This document shows, one piece after another, positions 17,271-32,434 of a stretch of DNA of 64,000 nt. The notes under the pieces were generated by a model, which made no database searches, was not told where the DNA came from, and saw nothing but the letters and a program-made list of their open reading frames with translations. The translations under genes were made by a program, and so were the position numbers. The DNA lies in assembly GCA_963744145.1 (NCBI GenBank), contig CAVUSO010000001.1:3840001-3904000 (forward strand), written 5' to 3'. Every line of letters begins with the position of its first letter. The first letter of the stretch is position 1. This DNA is from an uncultured cyanobacterium. Its GTDB lineage: Bacteria > Cyanobacteriota > Cyanobacteriia > Cyanobacteriales > CAWUOF01.

Positions 17271-17858
17271 ATGAACATTGAATCTCTCAATGATAGGCCA
17301 GCCGATCTCTTACTCCAGACTGATGCAGAGTTATTCTGTGCCTTAAAGGCTGGCCAATCGGCGGCCTTGGGAATTTTGTACGATCGCTATGCCAGTCTCG
17401 TGTATCGATTAGCTTTGAGGGTCTTGACTAATCATCAAGAAGCAGAAGACCTGACCCAAGAGATTTTCTTAACTCTGTGGCGTAGTAATACCTACAATCC
17501 AGATCGTGGATCTCTGGGCAGCTTTTTAACCACGCTAACTCGTTCTCGGGCGATCGATAAACTACGTTCTCGTGGTACTAACCGAAAATTCATCCAGCGT
17601 TGGCGGGATATGAACGTAGAAACTCCCCCACCAACTCCATTTGAGGAGGCTTCTTTAAGCCAACGCTCCCATTATGTTCGCGCCGCTCTAGCCCAGTTGC
17701 CCGAACATCAAAGACAGGTATTAGAAATGGCCTACTATGAGGGCCTGAGCCAATCAGAAATTTCTAAGCGATTAAATACACCTCTGGGAACAATTAAAAC
17801 CTGGGCTCGCCAAGGTTTATTAAAGCTCAGAAAACACTTACAGGACTTTATTGAATAG
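17271..17858 (+). CDS. ECF RNA polymerase sigma factor (SigK-like)
   Basis: EAEDLTQEIFL region 2; YYEGLSQSEISKRLNTPLGTIKT region 4. Confidence 0.92.
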   Translation: MNIESLNDRPADLLLQTDAELFCALKAGQSAALGILYDRYASLVYRLALRVLTNHQEAEDLTQEIFLTLWRSNTYNPDRGSLGSFLTTLTRSRAIDKLRSRGTNRKFIQRWRDMNVETPPPTPFEEASLSQRSHYVRAALAQLPEHQRQVLEMAYYEGLSQSEISKRLNTPLGTIKTWARQGLLKLRKHLQDFIE

Positions 17859-17864
17859 TTCATT

Positions 17865-18602
17865 ATGTCTGGGTCAGAACTTCCTCAAGGATTAGAAGAA
17901 TTAATTGCAGGTTATGTCCTCGGTAATCTCAGTTCTGAAGAAGCTGAGGAATTCAGGCAACTACTTGCAGCACATCCTGAACTCAGTACAGAGATAACTC
18001 TCTTGCAGGAAGTGCTGGGACTTATGCCTTATGCTTTACCCCAAGTAGCTCCTCCCCAGCATATCCGTGTTGCTGTTCTCGAAGCGGTTGATGATGTTGT
18101 GGGCGAAAACTATTCACCTCTTCGTCGTCGTTGGCCCTGGAAGAGAATTACTGCAAGTATTGCCGCAATTTTGGTGCTAGCGCTTAGTTTAGATAATTAT
18201 TTTCTGCGCCGACAACTGCGAATCATGCAGGTGCAAACTTTGCCCCAGAAAGATGTGATTTCCATGCTCAAAAATGCCAATACTCATTTAATCTCTCTCA
18301 AAGGGATGGATATGGCATCTGCGGCTTCTGGTAGTATTGTAATTACACCTGGGGAACAAGAAGCGGTTTTAGTGGTGCAAAATCTACCAGTTTTGCCGGA
18401 AGGTCAGTTTTATCAGCTTTGGGCGGTAGTTAATGGTGAAAAAATCTCTTGGGGTCAATTTAATACCAGTTCTCAAGGAACGGTTTTAATTAAACTTTCC
18501 ATTCCCCCTGTAACCGATGCAGCTCAATTAGTTTTTACAGTCGAAGTTTCTCCCGCACCTTGGCAACCAGATGGAGGAATGGTCATGACCAGTCAATTGT
18601 AA
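17865..18602 (+). CDS. Anti-sigma factor (RskA-like)
   Basis: LIAGYVLGNLS, one TM segment, YQLWAV, FTVE in the C-terminal domain; directly follows the ECF sigma. Confidence 0.9.
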   Translation: MSGSELPQGLEELIAGYVLGNLSSEEAEEFRQLLAAHPELSTEITLLQEVLGLMPYALPQVAPPQHIRVAVLEAVDDVVGENYSPLRRRWPWKRITASIAAILVLALSLDNYFLRRQLRIMQVQTLPQKDVISMLKNANTHLISLKGMDMASAASGSIVITPGEQEAVLVVQNLPVLPEGQFYQLWAVVNGEKISWGQFNTSSQGTVLIKLSIPPVTDAAQLVFTVEVSPAPWQPDGGMVMTSQL

Positions 18603-18615
18603 TGGGATTGAGAAT

Positions 18616-21348
18616 TTATTGATGAATAAAATTATCAATTAGTCTGAGAATGGCTTTATCTTCAAACTCTTGGGATAGCTCTAAAATTAGATGGCAAAAT
18701 TCACTATATTTTGGATCAAGTAATTTGATGCGATTGGCTTCCTGCTCCACTTGCTCAATATCACCCAAACTTGCTGCTTCTTGTAAAATCTTTAGCTCTT
18801 CATAAGCAGGAGCGATAATTTTTTTGTTAGCTTTTGATGGCTGTTGGTTTTCGATCCAATCCATCGCCACAATCCATTCTAATCCCAGTAAATCTTTGAC
18901 TTTCTCTAATAGCTGTAATAGGTTAATTGGTTTGGCAATAAATTCATTACTACCTGTTAAAAGCGATTGTTCTTGGTAATGGGAAAATACCCGTGCAGAT
19001 AAAGCAATTATGGGGATTTCTTTTAATTTTGGTGTCAGTCTGATTTGTCGGATCATTTCTAACCCATTCATTGATGGCATCGCTAAATCGGTGATAATTA
19101 AATCTGGATTGGCGATCGCTGCTTGTGCTAATCCCTCATTTCCATTCTTAGCTTCGATTAATTCAAATCCGATTGGTTTGAGCATTTGTGATAAAAGAAC
19201 CAGAGTTTCTTCTTGATCATCTACGACTAATATTTTCACTTCTTCTTTACCAGTAAAACCAATAATTGCTTCTGGTTTGAGAATTTTAATCGCTTCTAAC
19301 TCTGATTTGGGTAGTTCCAAATTTAACTCAAATGCAAAAATACTGCCCACATTCACCTGGGAATAAACTTCCAATTTAGATCCCATCATTTGCACAATTC
19401 TCTGACTAATAGAAAGTCCTAATCCGGTTCCTTCCATTTTCCGTTTGTTATCTCCTACCTGTTCAAATGGTAAAAAGATTTTTTCGATCTGTTCGGTAGT
19501 CATACCTACCCCAGTGTCTTCAATTTGAAACCTAATTTTTGCCATGATTTGTCCAAGTTCATTTTTCTGATGTACTCCTACTAAGATCACTTTGAAAGTT
19601 ACTGATCCCACATCGGTAAATTTAATCGCATTACCTAATAAGTTGATTAATACTTGTCGTAATCGCTTTTCATCAGTTCGGACATATTCTGGTAAAGAAG
19701 AAGAAAATTTATAGTGTAATAAAATATCTTTTTGCTCTGCTTTAATGCGACAAATCTCCGCAACACTCACCAGGAAATTAGCCAAGTATAAGTCAGTTTG
19801 ACAAAGTTCTAATTTTTGGGCTTCTATTTTCGCAATATCTAAAAGATCGTTAATGATATTTAACAAATGTGTCCCACTTTGATAAATAATATTGATGCCT
19901 TTTTTATCTGTTTGACTGATAGTTTGAGAGCGTTCCAGGATTTGAGCATAGCCTAAAATTCCATTGAGCGGTGTTCTCAATTCATGACTCATTAATGCGA
20001 GAAAATCACTTTTAGCTTGGTTAGCTGTATCTGCTGCTTTTTTGGCTATTTCTAATTCTGCGGTGCGTTCCCTAACTTTAATTTCTAGATTTTGGGAATA
20101 TTCTGCTAATTCTTGATTGGCTCTCTCTAATTGTTGATTGGCTTTTTTAAGTTGGAATTGATTATAGTAATTACTGGTTAAAATAGCCGAAAGATTAATC
20201 GCGATGATCGGAGAAAAAACTGGAATAACCCAACCTGTAAGAAAGAAAATGTAACTAATTAGCCAAACTAAGATGCTGGTGACAACAATACTGATAATTG
20301 GACTGATTAACAACGTACTAGTGGGGAAAAATTTCCGTTTTAATATACTCCAAGTTACCACTGTACTGCTGATTGACCACCATAAAATCCAACCTTGATT
20401 ATTCCATTTAGACCAGGGTTGGAGCTGATGACGACCATCTAAAGCCGCACTGAGAATCTGACTGGTCAGATTAGCATGAATAATTACACCAGAAGTCAAA
20501 ATGTTCTGATAGGGGATATAGAAAAGATCATTGAGACTAGGTGCTGTTACCCCAATTAAAACTATCCGATCGCGTAGGAAATTGGGGGGAATGCGGTTAT
20601 TTAAAACATCGGTCATGGATAAATTAAGAAAATTATTGAGATCACCGCGATAGTTCAACAAGATTTGGTATCCTCCCCGATCTTTAGCTACATAACCACC
20701 TTCATCTCCTTTTAATGGGAAAAAAATCGCCCGACCCAAACTAATTTTTTGCTGCACCCGATCGACTAATTTGCCTTCTATTCCTTTAGTTTTTAGATAC
20801 ATTAAGGACAGTTTTACCCCTAATCCTTGTTTGGGAGAAGATGCTCCTAGCGAGATTAAAGCTCGACGGACTTTAGTATCAGGATCAAGCAGAAGATCAA
20901 TCATTCCCACTTGTTTTTGTTTGGCTAAAATCGGTGCTGGTGCGATCGCTTCTGGTGTGACTTTTTCAATCCCAATTAGATTTGGGGTGGACTGATAAAG
21001 TTGGACTAGCTCTTGATATCCAGGTTCTACGGGTAAGTCGCGGTATAAATCTAACCCAATTGCGATTGGTTGTTGTACTTTAATTTTTTTAATTAACTGG
21101 GTTAAAATTTGATCGGACATTGGCCATTGTCCCACTCCTTTCACATCAGCTTCTCCGATCGTCACAATCACAATCCGTGGATCGATCGGTTCTGTGGGAC
21201 GTAGGCTAAAAAATTGGTCAATGGTATTCCATTCTAATAATTGCAGCACTCCTGTGAGGTTACTCAAAATTGTTGCTGCTCCCACAGTTACAGCAATAAC
21301 AAAAACACCTCCCCATTGTTGGAGCCATTTCTTGATTTCAATTGACAC
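18616..21348 (-). CDS. CHASE2-domain hybrid sensor histidine kinase/response regulator
   Basis: [20 protein letters not shown] (CHASE2); [10 protein letters not shown]; receiver domain. Confidence 0.92.
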
Positions 21349-23077: not shown

Positions 23078-23302
23078 AATTATTGCTAATCACTACTCTT
23101 GTCATCAAACACAAGGGTAGTAGTTTTAGTTTTTCTTTGGGAAGAGCGATCGCCAATTTCTCCTTTGAGGATTAGTCATTGTCTAAATCTCTCGATCGCA
23201 AGTCACAAGATTTTATCCGCTCATTTGATAGTTGTCAATCGGGTTTTTATAAAAAAGTTGATCCGCTAGAACAACGCCATATCAATATTTTCATGCTGCA
23301 TC

Positions 23303-23384
23303 ATATAAATTTATACGCTCACCTATATAAATTTATATGCTCACCTATATAAATTTATACGCGGGGCTATAGAATTTTCTATAT
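23303..23384. repeat. 22-bp tandem repeat (3 copies plus one diverged) with palindromic core TATAAATTTATA
   Basis: atataaatttatacgctcacct units starting at 23303, 23325, 23347; variant atagaattttctata at 23369. Confidence 0.85.
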
Positions 23385-23450
23385 TTTCTTTGCTGGTATT
23401 ATACAGCGGATTCGGTGGCTGATGAAGTACAGTAAGATTTGGTATGAATG

Positions 23451-23474
23451 GTGGGACAGGCATCTTGCCTGTCC
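23451..23474. repeat. REP-like palindrome GTGGGACAGGCATCTTGCCTGTCC
   Basis: Same family at about 58966, 59005, 61346 and 61408. Confidence 0.8.
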
Positions 23475-23730
23475 GAGATTGTGAGTGATCTGTGTTGGTT
23501 GGGCAGGTTTATGATAGTTATCTGTTTGGATCAGAATTGATTGGTGAACCTGCCCCTTGTAGAAAACGAGCTAAACGCACTACTAATTGAGCATCTACAA
23601 GAAACTTCATTGGGCAATTTTATAAATCTTTTCACCTGAGTTAACCGAGTAGCAAATAGTAACGCTGCCAAAATTGCATAATCGTTCCCACTCTTCACGA
23701 AGAAAGGTTAGTTAAGCAGGCGCAGATAAT

Positions 23731-24354
23731 ATGAAAACTAACCTCATTAATCAGGAATTGACCGGAACGATCGCCACTTTCCCTCAGCATCAATACCAGC
23801 CTAACACTTGGGAAACAGAAAGGCTATTCCTCCGACCCTTTACCGCCAAAGATTTTGCCGATCTTTACCGATTTTACAGCCATCGAGAAGTGATGCGTTT
23901 TATCGGCAAAGGTGCGAGAACCGAATCAGAAACTCTTGCTGAATTAATCAGTTTCATCACCCATTGGGAACAGCACTATTTCGGCAATTTTGCGATCATT
24001 CACAAAGCCTCTGGGAAATTGATGGGTCGCACTGGACTTTATCTTAGTGATCGATGCAAAGAGGCTCAGTTTGGCTACGTTTTGGATAAATCTTATTGGG
24101 GTAAAGGTCTTGGTTTGGAGGCCGCGAAAGCCAGTTTAGACTATGGTTTTAAGGTACTAGAGTTTGAGCAGATTGTCGCCTTTGCGATGCCAGAAAATTT
24201 TGTATCTCGGAAGATTTTATCTCAGAAATTGGGGATGCACTGCATCACAGATAATTTCATCTATTCTGGCATCCAATATGCTTATTATAGCATTGGGCGA
24301 GTCGAATACTTGACAAGTTCTTCTTGGCGTGTTAGGGCTTACCAACCTTCCTAA
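23731..24354 (+). CDS. GNAT N-acetyltransferase (RimJ/RimL-like)
   Basis: ETERLFLRPF, GYVLDKSYWGKGLG, PENFVSRKIL. Confidence 0.9.
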   Translation: MKTNLINQELTGTIATFPQHQYQPNTWETERLFLRPFTAKDFADLYRFYSHREVMRFIGKGARTESETLAELISFITHWEQHYFGNFAIIHKASGKLMGRTGLYLSDRCKEAQFGYVLDKSYWGKGLGLEAAKASLDYGFKVLEFEQIVAFAMPENFVSRKILSQKLGMHCITDNFIYSGIQYAYYSIGRVEYLTSSSWRVRAYQPS

Positions 24355-24599
24355 GCAGTCAGGAAAGGTGGAGTGGCGATCGCCTCATTTCTGGGCCTCA
24401 TAGCAGCGCGATCGCACCATCCCCAACTTCCCCAAAACAATTTTCCAGCTAAACTGCATAAACTCCCTAACTCCCCACGAGAAAGATATATAGGAGTTAC
24501 ACAAGGATTACAAACTATCGGAGGTAGGTTGTATAAATTAGTTCACTGCGATCGATATAACTTTAGTTACTCAAAGATGACTTGGGAGTAGTCACTAGA

Positions 24600-26120
24600 A
24601 TGGCAGACCTAATTGAGCGATTTTCGACTTTTCAAGGAATGGCAGACCTAATTGAGCGATTTTCGACTTTTCAAGAAGTCAATCCCCATCGTCGCCAAGT
24701 GCAGGATTCTAAGCTAAGACAAAATTTGCATTGCTTGCTAGAACAGTATCCAGAACTCAATGATGAAACAGCGTTGCTGAGATATTTCTGCAATGCTGCT
24801 GAGAATAACTCGGATTCATTAGCACGTTGTCATCTACTTGCTTATGTAGATTCTGCTTGCTATTCAGCAGCGATCGCAACTTACCAAATCTTCCGCACAC
24901 CGGATCTCACTTTGGAAGACTATCTGCAAATTGCCAGAGATAAAATTGCTCCCTGTCTTATTCAATTATGCGCTCAGTACGATCCCAGTCAAAGCCAAAT
25001 CACAACTTATGCTTCTCCGTTCCTCCGCAGTGCTATTATGAGCGAACTGCGTTGCCACCAAGAAATAGAAAGGCGGAGTGATTGGTCGCTGTTGCGAAAT
25101 TTCTCGAAGACTAAGCGGAAAAAAGTTTTAGATAAATTTGGAATCAAAGAGCCAAAATTATCTAATTGTTTGCTAATTTGGCAAGGCTTTTCAGAAGTTT
25201 ATGCCCCAGTTAAAGCACGGAGAAATCCGAAATTACCACCGCCAACTGAGAAACAATGGCAGGCGATCGCCCAATTTGGCAACGAACAGCAATTACCGCA
25301 CTCAGTTAAACCCTTCACCGTGCAGGACAGCCAAGAATTGTTAGGAATTTGCGTTAATGCGCTGCGAGAACCTAGTAGAATTAATTTGTATTCACTCAAT
25401 GAAGACAACCGAGATTTAGAACTAGAGATCACTAAAAAATCCCAGCAGCAAGTATGGTACAGAGAACAACAAACGGCTGAATCTGAGCAATACCAACAGG
25501 TGAAAATAGAATTAGCCAGCGCGATCGCCTCCCTCCCTGCTGATGCCCGAAAAATGTTAATCTTAGAACATGGCTTCATCGGATTTAACCAAAGTTACAT
25601 CGGTCAAGAGTTCGGCATCCAGCAATATCAGGTTTCTCGAAATTTAACTGGCTACAAACGCCGTCTCTTAGAAGTTTTGGTGCAGTGGAGTCAAAGACAA
25701 CTAGGTGTTAATTTGAGTTTAGAAACTGTCAAACGCCTATCAATTTATCTCGATGAGTGGCTGATTTGGTATTGCCAAAATACTATTCTGTACAGGTTTT
25801 TGGAAGCCGTTTTGAGGCTGCATCCTGCCCTTAAGTTGGAAATTAAGTTGTTGTATCGCTATTATGGGATGAGTTTACCAGGAAAAGCAGATGAAAGAGC
25901 GATCGAGATCGCCTGGGAATTTAACCTGGCACAAACTGAGTTGCAGGAAAAGTTAATGCAAGTTAAAACAACTTTGCAAGAACAGTTACACCAATGGCTA
26001 CAGCAAACTCTTGCACTCAAACCCTGTTCTCTAAGAGTGATGAATAATTCCTCAGCATTGTTAGTAGAACAGTTTTTAGCCAACGCGCCTTATGCCCTTT
26101 TAATCAGCGAACGGAGGTAA
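24600..26120 (+). CDS. Divergent sigma-70-family-like protein of the cyanobacterial sigma/DUF1822/CHAT cassette
   Basis: DLIERFSTF, HLLAYVDSAC, YDPSQS.ITTYA, SDWSLLR; region-4-like HTH FNQSYIGQEFGIQQYQVSR. Confidence 0.75.
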   Translation: MADLIERFSTFQGMADLIERFSTFQEVNPHRRQVQDSKLRQNLHCLLEQYPELNDETALLRYFCNAAENNSDSLARCHLLAYVDSACYSAAIATYQIFRTPDLTLEDYLQIARDKIAPCLIQLCAQYDPSQSQITTYASPFLRSAIMSELRCHQEIERRSDWSLLRNFSKTKRKKVLDKFGIKEPKLSNCLLIWQGFSEVYAPVKARRNPKLPPPTEKQWQAIAQFGNEQQLPHSVKPFTVQDSQELLGICVNALREPSRINLYSLNEDNRDLELEITKKSQQQVWYREQQTAESEQYQQVKIELASAIASLPADARKMLILEHGFIGFNQSYIGQEFGIQQYQVSRNLTGYKRRLLEVLVQWSQRQLGVNLSLETVKRLSIYLDEWLIWYCQNTILYRFLEAVLRLHPALKLEIKLLYRYYGMSLPGKADERAIEIAWEFNLAQTELQEKLMQVKTTLQEQLHQWLQQTLALKPCSLRVMNNSSALLVEQFLANAPYALLISERR

Positions 26121-27301
26121 TGAAAATGGTATTCAATTTAGAACAATTAAGCCTAGCCTGTCCCCATCATCTCTGGCTAGAGTTTTCGGAAAAAGAACAG
26201 GAAAAAGCTGTTTCTGTAAGACTGGATTACTCCCATGATGCAGCAAGTCATCGCGCTTTCTTAAATCGGCTGACTCTGGCAGTTTTGTTACCTGTATTGC
26301 AAGCAGAATCTGAAGCATTTACCCAAATTACATCCCCGGAAAATATTTGGGAATTTGTGACAGGTTTTGCCATCAGTTTGGGTAAAAATCGCTTGGTAAT
26401 TATTGCAAGTGAAACCATTGATACTGATGAATTTTCTGTGCCTCAAGAATGGGTAGATATTCCTGAATGGGCGGCTGATTATTATTTGGCTGTGCAGGTG
26501 AATTTAGAGGATGGATGGTTGCGGGTGTGGGGGTTTACAACCCATCGAAAACTGAAAAATGAAGGTAGGTATGATCGGGGCGATCGCACCTATTCTCTCA
26601 ATGGAGAAGATCTGTTTGAGCATCTCAATACTTTGTGGGTTTCTCTGAAACTTTGTCAAGGAGAAAAAGCGTTGATTGAACCTTTACCCGTCTTATCTTC
26701 TAACCAAATAGAGATGCTATTGGTAGAATTAGGTAAACCTTCTCTTTATTCCCCACGTTTGAAAATACCTTTTGCACAGTGGGGTGCGCTATTAGCTGCT
26801 GATAATTCAAGGCAAGAATTGTATCAGCGACGGTTGGAAAATGTGCCTAATATTGTGCAATTGGGTAAAAATATTTTCCCTGATTGGTGGCTAATGTTTG
26901 ATGAGTTAGTGCAAGCGTGTAACCTCAATCTTTCCTTTGCTAGAAGTGGAGCGCGATCGGGGGATAATGAAGAGCGTACTCCGGGAATTAGTCGGGGACG
27001 AGTGATTGATTTGGGGATTCAATTGGCGGGTAATTCTATGGCGCTAATTGTGCATTTCACTAAGGAATCAGAGAATAAACATAACATTTTGTTACAGGTA
27101 AATCCGGGTGGGGGTCAAACTTATTTACCGCCAGATGTGGAATTGATTGTATTAGATGATACGGGTGATGTGTTTTTGGAAGCGCGATCGCGCAGTGCTG
27201 ATAATTGGATTCAATTGGAGTTTCGGGGTGAGCCTGGGGAGCGGTTTAGTGTTAAGGTGGCTTTAGGGGATGCTAGTATTATGGAATATTTTGCAATCTA
27301 A
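26120..27301 (+). CDS. DUF1822 family protein
   Basis: VPQEWVDIPEWAADYYLAVQV, WGFTTH, SRSADNWIQLEFRGEPGERFSVKV. Confidence 0.88.
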   Translation: MKMVFNLEQLSLACPHHLWLEFSEKEQEKAVSVRLDYSHDAASHRAFLNRLTLAVLLPVLQAESEAFTQITSPENIWEFVTGFAISLGKNRLVIIASETIDTDEFSVPQEWVDIPEWAADYYLAVQVNLEDGWLRVWGFTTHRKLKNEGRYDRGDRTYSLNGEDLFEHLNTLWVSLKLCQGEKALIEPLPVLSSNQIEMLLVELGKPSLYSPRLKIPFAQWGALLAADNSRQELYQRRLENVPNIVQLGKNIFPDWWLMFDELVQACNLNLSFARSGARSGDNEERTPGISRGRVIDLGIQLAGNSMALIVHFTKESENKHNILLQVNPGGGQTYLPPDVELIVLDDTGDVFLEARSRSADNWIQLEFRGEPGERFSVKVALGDASIMEYFAI

Positions 27302-27319
27302 CCTAACCAGGAGAAAACA

Positions 27320-30319
27320 ATGAGAAAGTTAGTGATGCTGATTTTTGAAGAAAAGGGAGACTTGGAAAGAGTAGGTTTTTCGGTAACGTTACGACTAGGG
27401 GACGAGGGGCAAACTTTGCCTACTCAGCAAACTGGATCTTTACCGTCAAACCCGGAACTGGTTGAGTCTTACAACAGTTGGAAAGAAACTTATGATGGCT
27501 GCTTTATTAGGGTAAATGGTAGTAGATTAGAACAGCCAGCAAAACAAATAACTAACTTCTCAATTCCAGAGGTTGAGATAAAATCTGAGAATTTGAGGCA
27601 ACAATTTAATGACTGGTTACAATCGCAGCAATTGAATAATGTTAGGCAAGAATTAGTTGCCCTAGTTGCCAATTTACAAGAAAATGATGAAGTGCGGTTG
27701 ATTATCCAAACTTCAAATACACAGCTACAGAAACTTCCCTGGCATCTTTGGGATATATTGAGAGGTTGCCCTAAAGCTGAAATTAGTGTCAGTCCGCACA
27801 ATTTCAGTCCGCGGCCCAGTGTTAGAAAAAGAACATCAGCCAAATTTGCTAATAATCAAGTTAATATTTTGGCAATTTTGGGCAATGATAAGGAAATTAA
27901 TGTTGAAGAAGATCGAAGAATATTAAATTCTATTCCGGGTGCTAAAGTTAAGTTTTTAGTTAAACCCGAGCAACGAGACATCGACAATGAACTCAGGGAA
28001 AAGTCTTGGGATATTCTATTTTTTGCGGGACATAGCCGCACGGAGGGAGAAAAAGGAATCATATATATTAATTCGACTGAGAGTTTAACTATCGGTAACT
28101 TAAATTATGCGTTAGAAGAGGCAATTAGAAACGGTTTACAAATAGCAATTTTTAACTCTTGTGATAGTTTAGGGTTAGCTAAAGATTTAGCTGATTTGAA
28201 TCTCCCTCACATGATTATCATGCGAGAACAGGTTCCTGATAAAGTGGCACAGGAATTTTTGAAATATTTTCTGGGTTTTTTTTCACAGGGTCAGTCATTT
28301 TATTTAGCGGTTAAGAAAGCACGGGAAAAATTGCAGAGTTTGGAAAATCAGTTTCCCTGTGCTTCTTGGTTGCCTGTTATCTACCAAAAAAATCCTACTA
28401 AGATACCCCCTACTTGGAAAGAGTTACGGAGAATAGATAAAAAATCAGCTTTTTGTCTGAGCGCGTTATGTTTGGCAGAGGCAGCGGCAGCTTTTCTGGT
28501 ATCGGTAAGTCTTGTCCCATCTCCTGTGAATACTAATCACATTCTGATCTTAGTTTTAGGTGGATTAATCTTTGCCCAATCTCCTCCTGCGATCAAAGGC
28601 AAAAATTTACTAATTATTGCTGTAATTACTTTACCAATTATTTTTTTATGGCGGAGTTTGCAAGGTGGTTTTGGTTTGGAAATTGTGATCGGTATAGCAG
28701 CTTTAGCTGGATTAGGTGTGATCGCGATGGCATTGCATAATGTCAGGATGATTTCCCCATTTTTCAGACGAATTTTCATCGCTTTCAGCCGTCGATTCAT
28801 CCCCTGGATTAGCAACGCCTTGCGGTTTGGAGTTAGATTACAGGTTTTAGTATTGCTGAGCTTGGGCATCGCAATGTTGGATAGTAATCCTCCCTTTAAT
28901 CTTCACTTTAGTTTGGGTGACAAACCCCTTTTTTATAATGGCACGGATGTGACAGCAAAAAAGCTGCTAGATACCGGGGTGTTTGTTTATAATGGCACGG
29001 ATGTGACAGCAAAAAAGCTGCTAGGTATCTGGGAGTTTGCCCTGCTGGGAAATGGCCTGGGACATTATGAATGTGCTAGGGATGCCTTCGACAATTATCT
29101 AAAGCAAAATCCAAATGACCCAGAGGCTTTAATTTATAAGAATAATGCGATCGCCCGTCTTTCTGGTCGTCCACCTCTTCGCATTGCCGTCAGCGTTCCC
29201 ATTGGCAGTAACCCGGACGTTGCTGCTGAGATTTTACGAGGTGTTGCTCAGGCTCAGGCTCAAATTAATAATGATGCAAACGGCATTAATGGTGCCAAGT
29301 TAGAAATCAAACTTGCTGACGATCGCAACAATCGCGCCCTTGCAGCAAGTATCGCGCATACTTTTGTTCATGATCCCCAGGTTCTTGCCGTTATTGGACA
29401 CAATGCAAGTAACGCTTCTCAGGCGGCTGCTCCCATCTATAACAGGAATCACCTGGTGATGATCACTCCCACAAGCTTTGCAAGCGCAGTAACTAATAGC
29501 GACTGGCCTTATATTTTTCAAACTACTCCTACAGCTGAGAAATATACCAAAAGATTAGTCAATTATATTGTCAAAACTGATAATATTAAGAAAGCCGTAT
29601 TTTGTTTTGACTCTAACGCGCAAGATAATAACGATTTCAAAAAGGCGCTCTCTAAATCCTTAATCGAACTTGCTAACACAAGTGAATGCGATGTTAGGTC
29701 ACAATCATTCAATGCGGATGATGCAATTCAGGAAGCTAATGATAGAAATGCACAAGCCTTGATCGTCAATCCTTTTATAGACGAGATTGATAAAACCGCA
29801 AAGCTATTTAATGCCAACACCAATAACGATCCTCCCTTGCATCTGTATGGGTCGTCCACATTCAATACCTTTAAGACCTTAAGTATGGGAGCAGCAATCG
29901 AAAACCTTGTCATTCCAGTCGCATGGTATCCAGATTTTTATACAAAGACTAAGTTTGTTGAGGAGGCCACAAACCTATGGGGAACATCCTCTATCAATTG
30001 GCGTACCGCCATGAGTTATGATGCAGCCGAAGCAATCATTACAGCTTTACTGCAAATCCCATCTAGATCCGATATCAAAGACATTCGATCCGATATCAAA
30101 GAGACTCTATTAAAAAAAGACTTTTCAGTAGAAGGAGCAGAAGGGACAGCTCGACCAGTGAAATTTGATAGCAAAGGTGGCCGCAGCTGCGATCTTCCTA
30201 TTTTATTACTCCAAGTGAAACAGAAAGACCCCTCAAACCCCAAGACAGAATATGGTTTTGTACGGTTGGACGTTCCTGATCCAGAGGATAAATCGACGGT
30301 TGAATGCGATAAAAATTAG
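27320..30319 (+). CDS. CHAT (caspase-like) protease domain + TM segments + LivK-type periplasmic binding domain
   Basis: LPWHLWD, DILFFAGHS (His), IFNSCD (Cys); TM block; NPNDPEALIY, EILRGVAQAQ, VLAVIGHNAS, NWRTAMSYDA. Confidence 0.88.
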   Translation: MRKLVMLIFEEKGDLERVGFSVTLRLGDEGQTLPTQQTGSLPSNPELVESYNSWKETYDGCFIRVNGSRLEQPAKQITNFSIPEVEIKSENLRQQFNDWLQSQQLNNVRQELVALVANLQENDEVRLIIQTSNTQLQKLPWHLWDILRGCPKAEISVSPHNFSPRPSVRKRTSAKFANNQVNILAILGNDKEINVEEDRRILNSIPGAKVKFLVKPEQRDIDNELREKSWDILFFAGHSRTEGEKGIIYINSTESLTIGNLNYALEEAIRNGLQIAIFNSCDSLGLAKDLADLNLPHMIIMREQVPDKVAQEFLKYFLGFFSQGQSFYLAVKKAREKLQSLENQFPCASWLPVIYQKNPTKIPPTWKELRRIDKKSAFCLSALCLAEAAAAFLVSVSLVPSPVNTNHILILVLGGLIFAQSPPAIKGKNLLIIAVITLPIIFLWRSLQGGFGLEIVIGIAALAGLGVIAMALHNVRMISPFFRRIFIAFSRRFIPWISNALRFGVRLQVLVLLSLGIAMLDSNPPFNLHFSLGDKPLFYNGTDVTAKKLLDTGVFVYNGTDVTAKKLLGIWEFALLGNGLGHYECARDAFDNYLKQNPNDPEALIYKNNAIARLSGRPPLRIAVSVPIGSNPDVAAEILRGVAQAQAQINNDANGINGAKLEIKLADDRNNRALAASIAHTFVHDPQVLAVIGHNASNASQAAAPIYNRNHLVMITPTSFASAVTNSDWPYIFQTTPTAEKYTKRLVNYIVKTDNIKKAVFCFDSNAQDNNDFKKALSKSLIELANTSECDVRSQSFNADDAIQEANDRNAQALIVNPFIDEIDKTAKLFNANTNNDPPLHLYGSSTFNTFKTLSMGAAIENLVIPVAWYPDFYTKTKFVEEATNLWGTSSINWRTAMSYDAAEAIITALLQIPSRSDIKDIRSDIKETLLKKDFSVEGAEGTARPVKFDSKGGRSCDLPILLLQVKQKDPSNPKTEYGFVRLDVPDPEDKSTVECDKN
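28729..28819 (+). mobile_element. 91-bp MITE-like element (left end of a composite cassette), translated in frame within the CHAT gene
   Basis: Terminal inverted repeats GGCATTGC...GCAACGCC; 76/91 ungapped identity to the reverse complement of 30269-30359. Confidence 0.8.
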
Positions 30320-30998
30320 TCCGAAAAATTGGAAAATCATACTGCCATTATGCAACGCCCTATTTCGACGTATTTACAATTCTCTGTCTCAGCAAAATAA
30401 AACTACAGTTTTAATCTTATCTTTATTAATTCCAGCAGGGTTTTGCATCTGGTGGTTTATGCCGCCTGATAGTTGGTGGTTTATGTCGCCTGATAGTTTT
30501 GCGAAAGTGTCCAATGTTCCCTCCGGATCTTTTTTTTATGGAGGAAGTACCGCTTGGGCACCAATTAGTCACGTTGTAAATTCTGTGATTGAAAATATAT
30601 GGCCTCAGTTTAAATTGAGTTATAAACAACCTAATACTGACGCTCCTGAATCAAGTACTGGGATTAAAATGCTTTTAGATAATCAGTTAGCATTTTCTCA
30701 GTCTTCTCGCCCTGTGAAAGATGAAGAATATAAAGCTGCTAAACACAAGGTATTTACCCTCAAAGAAGTAACGATCACTATTGATGGAATAGCGTTTATA
30801 GTTAAACCGAATTTAAATATTACTGGTTTAAATTTAGCTCAGATTAAAGATATTTATACTGGCAAAATTACCAACTGGAGTCAAGTCGGCGGTCCGAACC
30901 AAACAATTATCCCTTACTCTCTTCATAGTGGAAGTGAAACCATAGATTTTTTGATAGAAAACATTTTAAAAAACGAGAAGCTGGGCGAGCAGGTTTGA
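30252..30998 (+). pseudogene. Truncated PstS-like (PBP2) binding domain with TM anchor; probable displaced C-terminus of the CHAT gene
   Basis: FAKVSNVPSGSFFYGGSTAWAP, FSQSSRP, IYTGKITNWSQVGGP; stops part-way through the domain. Confidence 0.75.
30269..30359 (-). mobile_element. 91-bp MITE-like element (right end of the composite cassette)
   Basis: Inverted copy of 28729-28819, ending in GCAACGCC. Confidence 0.8.
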
Positions 30999-31318: not shown

Positions 31319-32284
31319 TTAAATTGACAAAAGTTCAAGAGAACGCAAAAATTGGCAAATCTGCCTCGCCACATCGATCGCAACCGCCCGCTGTGCCTCG
31401 CGTGTACCCGAACCCAAATGCGGACTCAAATGCAACTTATTACTCCTCCTAGCAAACTCTATCAAAGGTGAATCCTTTGGTAAAGGTTCATTAACAAAAA
31501 CATCCAAAGCAGCACCCGCAATTCGATTAGATTCCAACGCCTTCAACAAATCTGCCTCATTCACAATTCCACCGCGAGCACAATTGATAATAAAAGCAGT
31601 TGGTTTCATCGTATCTATAGCTGCTGCATTAATTAAATTCCTCGTTTCCTCTGTCAAAGGAATGTGTAAAGTAATAATATCAGATTTTTTCAGCAGTTCA
31701 TCTAAACTCGATAAAGTATAACCCCTTTCGCTAGCTAAATTCGCTACCTTTTCAGGATTACGATTGTAAGCGATAATCTCCATTCCAAACGCTTGCGCTC
31801 TTTCTGCCACCTTTTGACCGATATTGCCTAACCCAATAATTCCCAGGGTTTTTCCATAAAGTTCTGTTCCCCATGAACTGCGAGGACCATTCCAGTTTCC
31901 ATTTAATAGTTCTTCTTGTGGCGCGATAATAGGTCGAGCTAAATCTAACATCAGACAGAAAACTAATTCAGCCGTAGCAATACCATTAGCATTAGAATTA
32001 AACACCCTAATCCCTAACCGTTCGGCAGTTTCAAGATCAACATTATCTGTCCCTGTCTGCGCCAATCCTATAACTCGCAATCTTCCGCTCCTTCCCCTCT
32101 CCAACACGGTTGCATTGTTTAAATGATCTATCCCCGATCGCAAAACCACAGCATCACATTGAGGAATTTCTTCTAAAAGTTCTTCCAAGGACAAACCAAT
32201 CCTTATCTCTACTACGGCAAACTTTTCTAACTCGGTAATCCCCTCTGGGTGGATTTCGCTGATGACCAAAACTTTTTTCTGCAT
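31319..32284 (-). CDS. D-2-hydroxyacid dehydrogenase (SerA-like, no ACT domain)
   Basis: GTELYGKTLGIIGLGNIG, INCARGG, AALDVFVNEP, SPHLGSGTREAQ. Confidence 0.88.
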   Translation of the reverse strand: MQKKVLVISEIHPEGITELEKFAVVEIRIGLSLEELLEEIPQCDAVVLRSGIDHLNNATVLERGRSGRLRVIGLAQTGTDNVDLETAERLGIRVFNSNANGIATAELVFCLMLDLARPIIAPQEELLNGNWNGPRSSWGTELYGKTLGIIGLGNIGQKVAERAQAFGMEIIAYNRNPEKVANLASERGYTLSSLDELLKKSDIITLHIPLTEETRNLINAAAIDTMKPTAFIINCARGGIVNEADLLKALESNRIAGAALDVFVNEPLPKDSPLIEFARRSNKLHLSPHLGSGTREAQRAVAIDVARQICQFLRSLELLSI

Positions 32285-32434
32285 AACCTGATTAAAAATT
32301 CTGAGAATAGGTAAAGACACTAAACACTATTAGATAAAACTCGCTTAAGAGGCTGGGACTGATTATAGCATTAATTGCTTCCAAGATGATTTTGAAACTG
32401 AAGTAATGCGTTTTGAGATGTTTTGACAATGCCT

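Follow-up and report, generated by a model that had tools for sequence, protein, structure and literature searches.

How could a membrane protease be connected to transcription in a cyanobacterium? The question is raised by three adjacent genes in a 64,000-nucleotide stretch of DNA from an uncultured cyanobacterium (GenBank assembly GCA_963744145.1, contig CAVUSO010000001.1, positions 3,840,001 to 3,904,000; hereafter the window). The genes encode a divergent sigma-70 factor, a DUF1822 protein and a membrane receptor with a CHAT protease domain. A first-pass annotation of the window proposed that ligand binding activates the protease, which then cleaves DUF1822 acting as an anti-sigma factor. 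The analysis points to a protease-relieved sigma/anti-sigma switch similar to HetF-PatU3-HetZ of Anabaena, and we give this reading an even chance for its core steps of complex formation, cleavage and sigma release.

Organization of the locus

Three open reading frames (ORFs) follow one another on the + strand (24582/24600-26120, 26120-27301 and 27320-30319). The ATG at 24600 lies behind a GGAG and is the start common to relatives of the sigma gene. The tight coupling described in the first-pass annotation is present in the sequence: a TAATG at 26120 makes a 1-bp overlap between the sigma and DUF1822 genes, and 18 bp separate DUF1822 from the CHAT gene. The parts of the trio are as follows.

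24600..26120, + strand: divergent sigma-70 factor, 506 amino acids, with an N-terminal extension, region 2, an insertion of ~100 residues, a region 4 helix-turn-helix (HTH) and a C-terminal extension
26120..27301, + strand: DUF1822 protein, 393 amino acids, predicted anti-sigma factor (Pfam and structure models)
26936..26974, + strand: DUF1822 linker FARSGARSGDNEE, candidate CHAT cleavage site by analogy to R117 of PatU3, with R275 (26942-26944) and R279 (26954-26956)
27320..30319, + strand: receptor protease, 999 amino acids, with an EACC2-like N-terminal domain (~1-100), CHAT, five hydrophobic segments (28451-28882), TPR and a LivK-like PBP6 ectodomain (29177-30100)
28031-28033 and 28160-28162, + strand: codons of the CHAT dyad, His238 and Cys281, read from the sequence

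The first protein matches the sigma-70 family

Protein 1 has no Pfam match and scores 51.7 bits against TIGR02937 (sigma70-ECF, where ECF is extracytoplasmic function; cut-off 42.9, E 7e-14). A 36-row profile of its family finds FliA (E 2.3e-9) through matches in regions 2 and 4 alike, and residues 85-359 align with a sigma factor of the same genome at 94.9% probability. The first-pass annotation had recognized a sigma-70-like protein with a region 4 HTH and had named the lack of a sigma fold as the finding that would count against it. Region 2 is matched as well, so the protein is more than an HTH, and the score above the TIGR02937 cut-off and the FliA matches speak for the fold. The N-terminal extension and the ~100-residue insertion between regions 2 and 4 are family features, and the window clade has the C-terminal extension in addition. 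A perfect 39-bp in-frame duplication at 24598-24675 is absent from a duplicate of the sigma gene described below. HetZ orthology was considered and rejected: the HetZ profile NF037963 matches three genes in the genome, none of them at the trio locus. Protein 1 did not match NF041236 (type III-E sigma) at E 0.1.

DUF1822 is predicted to bind the sigma factor

The assignment of the second gene to DUF1822 was borne out by a Pfam match at E 4e-85. Its AlphaFold model has a predicted local distance difference test (pLDDT) value of 84 and consists of an α/β domain (18-183), helices (194-275), a disordered linker (275-285, pLDDT <50) and an immunoglobulin (Ig)-like sandwich (288-393). The α/β domain has a middling similarity to PD-(D/E)xK nucleases, with D212 at Z 7.3 (rmsd 3.7, 124 residues aligned), DpnI at Z 6.9 (3.8, 142) and Hjc at Z 6.6 (3.2, 111). 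The acidic nuclease motif is missing from the window-type subgroup (40 of 110 representatives), which has alanine or hydrophobic residues in its place; a D...E-C-R is present in another subgroup (41/110) that was picked by that very motif. A Foldseek search with the model gave no clear match, and TRADD-N was not among the fold matches listed, which does not exclude it. Kaur, Iyer, Burroughs and Aravind (2021, PMC8195603) called DUF1822 a TPR protein, given as TRADD-N plus TPRs in the supplement; statements on published work here refer to the parts of each source that were covered. No TPR fold is seen in the present model, which instead predicts a nuclease-like fold without the catalytic motif, a disordered arginine-bearing linker and an Ig-like domain.

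The modeling of the sigma:DUF1822 complex called for in the first-pass annotation gave a score of 0.87 in three runs, and the best of 3 controls scored 0.00. Of solved pairs, 116/157 come up to the score mark, as do 2/215 mismatched pairs; the mark is rough here, since the alignments were our own. At least 86% of the contacts are common between runs and the pLDDT of the partners is at least 79. DUF1822 residues 3-215 contact sigma residues 99-164, 172-236 and 336-388, which correspond to region 2, the insertion and the region 4 helix. This interface has the geometry expected of an anti-sigma factor, and the model supports binding. The anti-sigma role claimed in the first-pass annotation thus gains a predicted contact with regions 2 and 4; that DUF1822 binds as an inhibitor is in our judgment quite probable. 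The two proteins are made together by translational coupling, and as the first step of the proposed switch they would bind, the N-terminal half of DUF1822 covering region 2, the insertion and the region 4 recognition helix such that promoter recognition would be blocked.

The receptor joins a CHAT protease to a periplasmic-binding-protein domain

The architecture read in the first pass, an intact AGHS/NSCD dyad linked through transmembrane (TM) segments to a binding domain, was recovered. Pfam places CHAT at 111-350, a weak TPR at 574-606 and Peripla_BP_6 at 620-927 (E 1.4e-26). His238 (AGHS) and Cys281 (NSCD) are invariant in 41/41 dereplicated relatives, and hydropathy alone gives hydrophobic segments at 378-396, 407-425, 429-447, 455-473 and 503-521. 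The same 41 representatives share a conserved region of ~100 amino acids before CHAT that fits EACC2 by description, a comparison made without an EACC2 profile. The linker that follows has a conserved arginine, R69 (25/41 in the column; 22/27 within 12 residues of a QxTN motif). The CHAT region aligns with that of a HetF-like protein of the same genome (probability 98%, E 2e-13); on its own, it found no solved relative by sequence. The PBP6 domain is only distantly similar to Leu/Ile/Val-binding proteins (best E 1e-13).

The TPR-PBP6 ectodomain is attached to many kinds of partner. Among 119 listed of 223 relatives, assigned by eye, it accompanies CHAT (43), C14 caspase (52), kinase (4), TIR (3), AAA_35 (4) or none of these (13); by domain composition it is a common plug-in. 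Seven aligned TPR-PBP6 relatives have a single membrane segment each. In the second step of the switch, a small molecule outside the inner membrane would bind PBP6 and turn on the cytoplasmic CHAT domain, probably via dimerization and possibly with self-cleavage. For the chimeric receptor of the window described below, we lean slightly toward such ligand gating.

A conserved arginine marks the DUF1822 linker

The DUF1822 linker is variable save for one arginine, often in the setting F-R-S/G or G-x-R-S. Arginine occupies linker column 279 in 30/48 sequences. An R[SG] lies in the linkers of 33/51 anchored representatives compared to 11.7% of random windows, a count from which 18/69 representatives without an anchor were dropped and in which 3/51 are visibly mis-anchored. 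HetF cuts PatU3 after R117 (R117|S118), and PatU3 inhibits the sigma factor HetZ, cross-linking to the HetZ insertions and region 4 (Xing 2022, PMC9457339; Hu 2026, PMC13342950). By analogy, CHAT would cleave DUF1822 on the C-terminal side of R279 or R275 and detach the Ig-like domain, a possible docking element for the protease; cleavage in this linker is somewhat more likely than not. The arginine lies ~60 residues past the predicted sigma interface. A cut alone would leave that interface in place, and sigma release therefore needs a further step, degradation after the cut. PatU3 fragments are stated to be degraded, and in the fourth step the cut anti-sigma factor would likewise be degraded and sigma freed.

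How deep is the resemblance to PatU? A PatU3 among the collected loci (L116, 258 amino acids) reads T114-N-F-R117-S-P, and the R117 column is kept in 124/144 PatU sequences. In a PatU model the arginine stands between helices and a C-terminal Ig-like domain, and the run of strands matches that of DUF1822. The C-terminal domains of both families are Ig-like and have 12 of 50 top fold entries in common, counted by eye. A language-model atlas links the two families reciprocally (0.82 and 0.85, at the level of a lead), and their profiles align the same strands, LP...L.L...R...L.V/IEL/QL...P/G..Y/F..EV/KV. Weighing against common descent, the profile likeness is weak (P 0.007-0.07; 3/100 block shuffles as good), a deeper profile of 194 rows gave no higher score, and a hidden Markov model of the DUF1822 C-terminal domain did not list PatU at E 5 in the same genome. 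PatU also has no nuclease-like domain that could be seen, unlike DUF1822. The analogy is strong and homology is weakly supported by these comparisons. As a separate observation, the PatU at L093:2715-3797 reads S-T-A-Y-R-E-P where most PatU have P-x-R-S, a shifted HetF site.

Relation to known systems

The trio belongs to a kind of system already described computationally. Kaur 2021 reported genes for EACC2 plus caspase with variable C-termini, mostly beside ECF sigma and DUF1822 genes, and proposed autopeptidase activation with a transcriptional end step. The three genes are the same, as are the caspase-fold domain and the variable C-termini, among them small-molecule-binding domains behind TM helices; the constant N-terminal domain has a counterpart by description. 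That study is computational only, and no anti-sigma role, cut site or promoter appears in the text covered. The predicted interface, the DUF1822 fold, the candidate cut site, the promoter-like motif and the receptor chimera are additions of the present work, all of them predictions. The first-pass annotation knew of no functional characterization of the triad, and in the literature searched (most subscription journals lay outside it, and the Kaur supplement was partly covered) no experimental study of the trio and no function of DUF1822 were found; the triad itself and an autoproteolysis model had, however, been published in 2021 (PMC8195603). DUF1822 is named in two papers of this literature, in one of them as no more than an entry in a table. 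For EACC2, Kaur 2021 was the only paper found among the matches listed. A search for CHAT with anti-sigma in cyanobacteria turned up only a CRISPR preprint in the same literature, and one for a PatU-DUF1822 link returned nothing relevant, the supplements of two PNAS papers being outside the search.

The first-pass annotation had taken type III-E Craspase as its precedent, a system in which transcription begins once a CHAT protease has cleaved an inhibitor of sigma (Strecker 2022, PMC10028731; bioRxiv 10.1101/2023.06.23.546230). HetF-PatU3-HetZ, with its arginine cut and its sigma inhibitor, is the closer precedent and has been tested by experiment. HetF is a membrane CHAT protease with outside TPRs whose substrate is cut after an arginine, and the substrate gene lies behind, and its product inhibits, an ECF-type sigma factor with large insertions (PMC9457339, PMC13342950). 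In the models, PatU3 and DUF1822 share an arginine site followed by an Ig-like domain. Unlike the trio, hetF is unlinked, the sigma families differ and HetF is without a ligand-binding domain. The Craspase set Csx29-Csx30-CASP-sigma differs in being RNA-activated through Cas7-11 and in having a soluble TPR-CHAT. Protein 2 matches DUF1822 only and no Csx30 family, inspection of ORFs in window 18-38 kb turned up no Cas gene, as far as it went, and the receptor scores 27.4 bits against the HetF family NF045509 (cut-off 1200). By these profile comparisons the trio is outside the HetZ, HetF and Craspase families.

A broader reading holds that DUF1822 and PatU are distant homologues and that HetF-PatU3-HetZ is one domesticated member of a cyanobacteria-wide set of arginine-cleavage sigma switches. 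Many such switches would run in parallel in a single genome (this one has 10 genes with a DUF1822 N-domain), each having a promoter motif of its own, and small mobile elements would swap their sensors. This is possible and rather doubtful. If true, ligand-gated caspase-like receptors would be wired straight to cyanobacterial transcription. The protease-relieved switch, if right, would account for a large group of cyanobacterial CHAT receptors that are now orphans, and the heterocyst pathway would join a wider family. The predicted interface, cut site (R279/R275) and promoter make the 2021 guilt-by-association proposal directly testable, and an E. coli host with Anabaena RNA polymerase already exists (PMC13342950).

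The sigma-DUF1822 pair recurs with a variable protease

The recurrence of the triad in cyanobacteria claimed in the first pass held up in a census: a sigma gene lies directly 5' of DUF1822 in 74 of the 75 loci with enough DNA, and the sole exception (L004) has an overlapping sigma ORF. The census comprises the best 80 of 174 loci, which are mostly Nostoc and hence not independent; 76/80 have a full-length DUF1822. A CHAT gene follows DUF1822 within 2 kb downstream in 51/66 loci (44 window-type, 7 TPR-CHAT). Pfam adds one TPR-CHAT (L010) and two C14 caspases (L019, L025), which brings the loci with a clan-CD protease nearby to 54/66. Three unrelated clan-CD architectures thus occupy the protease slot. 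The survey of C-terminal domains on DUF1822-linked CHAT proteins suggested in the first pass found wide variation: relatives and paralogues carry CHASE2, NACHT, NB-ARC, TIR, kinase, trypsin plus COP23, nSTAND1-WD40, PstS, iSTAND or a Zn ribbon, and the window receptor PBP6.

PF08852 (DUF1822) occurs in 38/60 sampled genomes of the phylum, at up to nine per genome, and in 0/14 controls. The DUF1822 paralogues inspected in the genome of the window stand behind a sigma-like or short HTH-like gene, often TAATG-coupled, and most precede a CHAT gene; hetZ, patU and the hetF-like gene are located elsewhere in this genome. The GNAT acetyltransferase gene upstream of the trio, the sigma gene and DUF1822 are duplicated together in inverted orientation at C1:3.970-3.974 Mb (96% identity over 3.8 kb), where DUF1822 and CHAT genes cluster over 36 kb. 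The Ig domain also occurs fused to CHAT (L018:1362-3011) and as stand-alone genes of 112-124 amino acids, directly before CHAT at L016-L018:6004-6378 and also at C1:1,196,185 and 7,003,014.

These arrangements bear on an explanation close to that of Kaur 2021, in which the sensor triggers EACC2-CHAT autoprocessing and DUF1822 is an uncut adaptor that tethers sigma by its N-terminal half to the receptor by its Ig domain, with the sigma-DUF1822 unit released or remodeled. The Ig domains fused to or encoded beside CHAT are in its favor, as are the conserved arginine R69 in the receptor's own linker and the proposal in section 9 of PMC8195603, but the conserved arginine in the disordered DUF1822 linker and the differently built TPR-CHAT and C14 partners are left unexplained. 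Such self-cleavage is unlikely to be what the system does, and it can coexist with the protease-relieved switch.

Several further arrangements were seen. DNA run X2 contains a form that skips the sigma gene and the N-terminal part of DUF1822. Clustered in C1:3,944,000-3,981,000 (L081-L083) are four DUF1822 genes, six CHAT genes, several genes of the sigma/HTH kind and a MoxR-vWA-iSTAND set in which the members carry a CHAT fusion. One distant family in the phylum has small genomes of 1.6-2.2 Mb (L137-L148); in 19/20 of them, a DUF1822 N-domain heads an acidic protein of ~1000 amino acids with a D...D-V-R motif and a helix pair that by eye resembles an anti-sigma domain, with no Pfam match for the helix pair. 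A second module type joins a short HTH-like gene to an Ig-less DUF1822 of 184-283 amino acids, several with D...E-C-R and an arginine linker (C1:2,814,861-2,820,142; 4,734,541-4,740,952; 4,751,640-4,761,582; 2,875,127-2,877,561; 3,516,575-3,517,777). Two of these modules are followed by Pfam-confirmed TPR-CHAT genes, and the type could represent nuclease-like effectors.

A promoter-like motif precedes the operon

Alignment of upstream DNA gave a bipartite motif, TGCATAA-N16-CGA(T/G/C/A)A, with a variable spacer. It lies 5' of the sigma gene in 10/10 near relatives, three of which (L002-L004) are outside the defining alignment; the chance rate is 0.18% per 450 bp. The sites and the acetyltransferase gene are listed below (PWM, position weight matrix).

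23675..23702, + strand: motif TGCATAA-N16-CGAAG before the GNAT gene, candidate site for the window sigma factor (PWM scan)
23731..24354, + strand: GNAT acetyltransferase (Pfam Acetyltransf_3, E 7e-30), candidate target gene, part of the duplicated segment
24455..24482, + strand: motif TGCATAA-N16-CGAGA, 5' of the sigma gene (alignment and PWM scan)
24530..24557, + strand: another copy, TGTATAA-N16-CGATA, whose end lies 43 bp 5' of the ATG (PWM scan)

Scanning 19 loci gave 37 profile matches, 35 of which share the strand of the operon; many are 50-80 bp away from the start that follows. The genes behind the motif include GNAT (also in L003 and L017), lone Ig-domain genes, a CHAT gene and genes ahead of a JAB/ThiF gene. 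A genome scan with the 16-bp spacer gave 8 upstream matches compared to 1-3 for other spacers; one away from the trio and its duplicate precedes a TPR protein with CHAT-like motifs (by eye). The sigma factor is present in 15/21 relatives, and the one locus with the motif that these add, L152, has a site identical to that of L001 and is not independent. Scans for sigma-70 promoters and terminators were at chance level, and 34 distant sigma loci have no shared bipartite motif. In the last step of the switch, freed sigma would transcribe its own operon, the GNAT gene and other protease or defence-type genes from TGCATAA-N16-CGA, promoters that we infer the window sigma factor reads.

The same data suit a different arrangement, in which sigma-DUF1822 is a self-contained pair under other control and the CHAT gene belongs to the regulon as an output, encoding an effector of defence or cell death. 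The pair is near-constant in the census and the protease is not, the motif also stands before CHAT-type genes (L003:8029; C1:2884098) and a JAB/ThiF operon, the ectodomain appears on CHAT, C14 caspase, kinase, TIR and AAA_35 among the 119 listed relatives, and the duplicate pair at 3.97 Mb has other neighbors. A clan-CD protease is nevertheless close by in most loci, the linker arginine is conserved, and feedback promoters on pathway genes are expected of a switch too. We regard the effector role as quite unlikely.

As a side observation, a doubled motif precedes a 180-aa gene without an assigned family at L004:10644-11327, L016:9081-11868, L017 and L018. A JAB-ThiF fusion gene of a ubiquitin-like conjugation system follows in L016.

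The receptor gene is a chimera

Part of the receptor gene and the DNA behind it resemble sequences found elsewhere in the genome.

28550..28728, + strand: membrane-segment DNA, 80% identical to the C-terminal anchor of a Ser/Thr kinase gene (C1:677101-678471)
28729..28819, + strand: 91-bp element resembling a miniature inverted-repeat transposable element (MITE), with ends GGCRTTGC...GCAACGCC, in frame inside the receptor gene
30269..30359, - strand: second MITE copy, inverted, 84% alike, overlapping the last codons and stop of the receptor gene
30252..30998, + strand: truncated ORF with TM segment and PstS-like domain (Pfam/family profiles and genome comparison)

Across the genome, ~25 MITE-like elements are 87-134 bp long and have the ends GGCGTTGC...GCAACGCC; short direct repeats flank many of them. 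Together with a third copy, which is in frame in the vWA gene of the C1:3,944,000-3,981,000 cluster and has an 8-bp direct repeat, the two window copies make up a subfamily whose interior differs. Within the PstS-like remnant 3' of the second copy, 30360-30935 shares 78% identity with the sensor half of a CHAT paralogue (C1:3947180-3949399). Contigs of DNA run X1, which may be the source sample, bridge both receptor joints without differences. By these matches, the receptor gene is chimeric, its joints carry MITE copies and its frame is intact. The 1.63-kb unit has no flanking duplication, and simple composite transposition is therefore not shown. An attC-like shuffling site was rejected as an identity for the 91-bp repeat: in the repeat GTT stands first and AAC last, folding of the window copies is no better than that of shuffles, and its ends are common to the ~25 MITE-like copies, many of which have short direct repeats.

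The family could be a switch while the window receptor itself is a recent, possibly non-signaling product of a MITE-associated rearrangement. In favor are the MITE copy at each joint, the kinase-derived membrane segments, the PstS-like remnant, internal 54-bp and 21-bp duplications and the 96% duplicate of sigma plus DUF1822. The 999-codon frame is nonetheless open through all joints, the dyad is intact, PBP6 stays outside because the hydrophobic segments are odd in number, the CHAT-TM-TPR-PBP6 arrangement is common, and the X1 contigs span both joints. A non-signaling receptor is improbable.

Points against the switch

Several observations weigh against the protease-relieved switch, in addition to the limits given with the linker count and the census and the distance of the linker arginine from the interface. 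No CHAT or caspase gene lies within 2 kb in 12/66 loci, and several DUF1822 paralogues of the same genome are without any Ig domain. The likeness of the sigma factor to HetZ is confined to the HTH (E 0.003). Compared to its single-pass relatives, the window receptor has ~140 extra residues, made up of the kinase-anchor-like segments and then the in-frame 91-bp MITE. For the promoter, 4/8 upstream motif matches are the window locus and its duplicate, and the motif is in only 2/35 further sigma loci, a scarcity that fits a clade-specific promoter.

Neighboring features

At the left end of the duplicated segment, window 23172-23557 is an intergenic mosaic of dispersed repeats with >100 genome matches. 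About 6 kb 5' of the trio, window 17271-21348 holds an ordinary sigma/anti-sigma pair, an ECF-like sigma gene with an RskA-type anti-sigma gene (17865-18602), and a hybrid histidine kinase gene on the opposite strand. In-frame tandem duplications of 39 bp (24598-24675), 54 bp (28929-29036), 21 bp (30066-30107) and 24 bp (30450-30497) are scattered over the locus. A 2-hydroxyacid dehydrogenase gene at window 31319-32320 is 90% identical to a copy at C1:3,945,964, which has a promoter-like motif 49 bp upstream with the first motif profile only.

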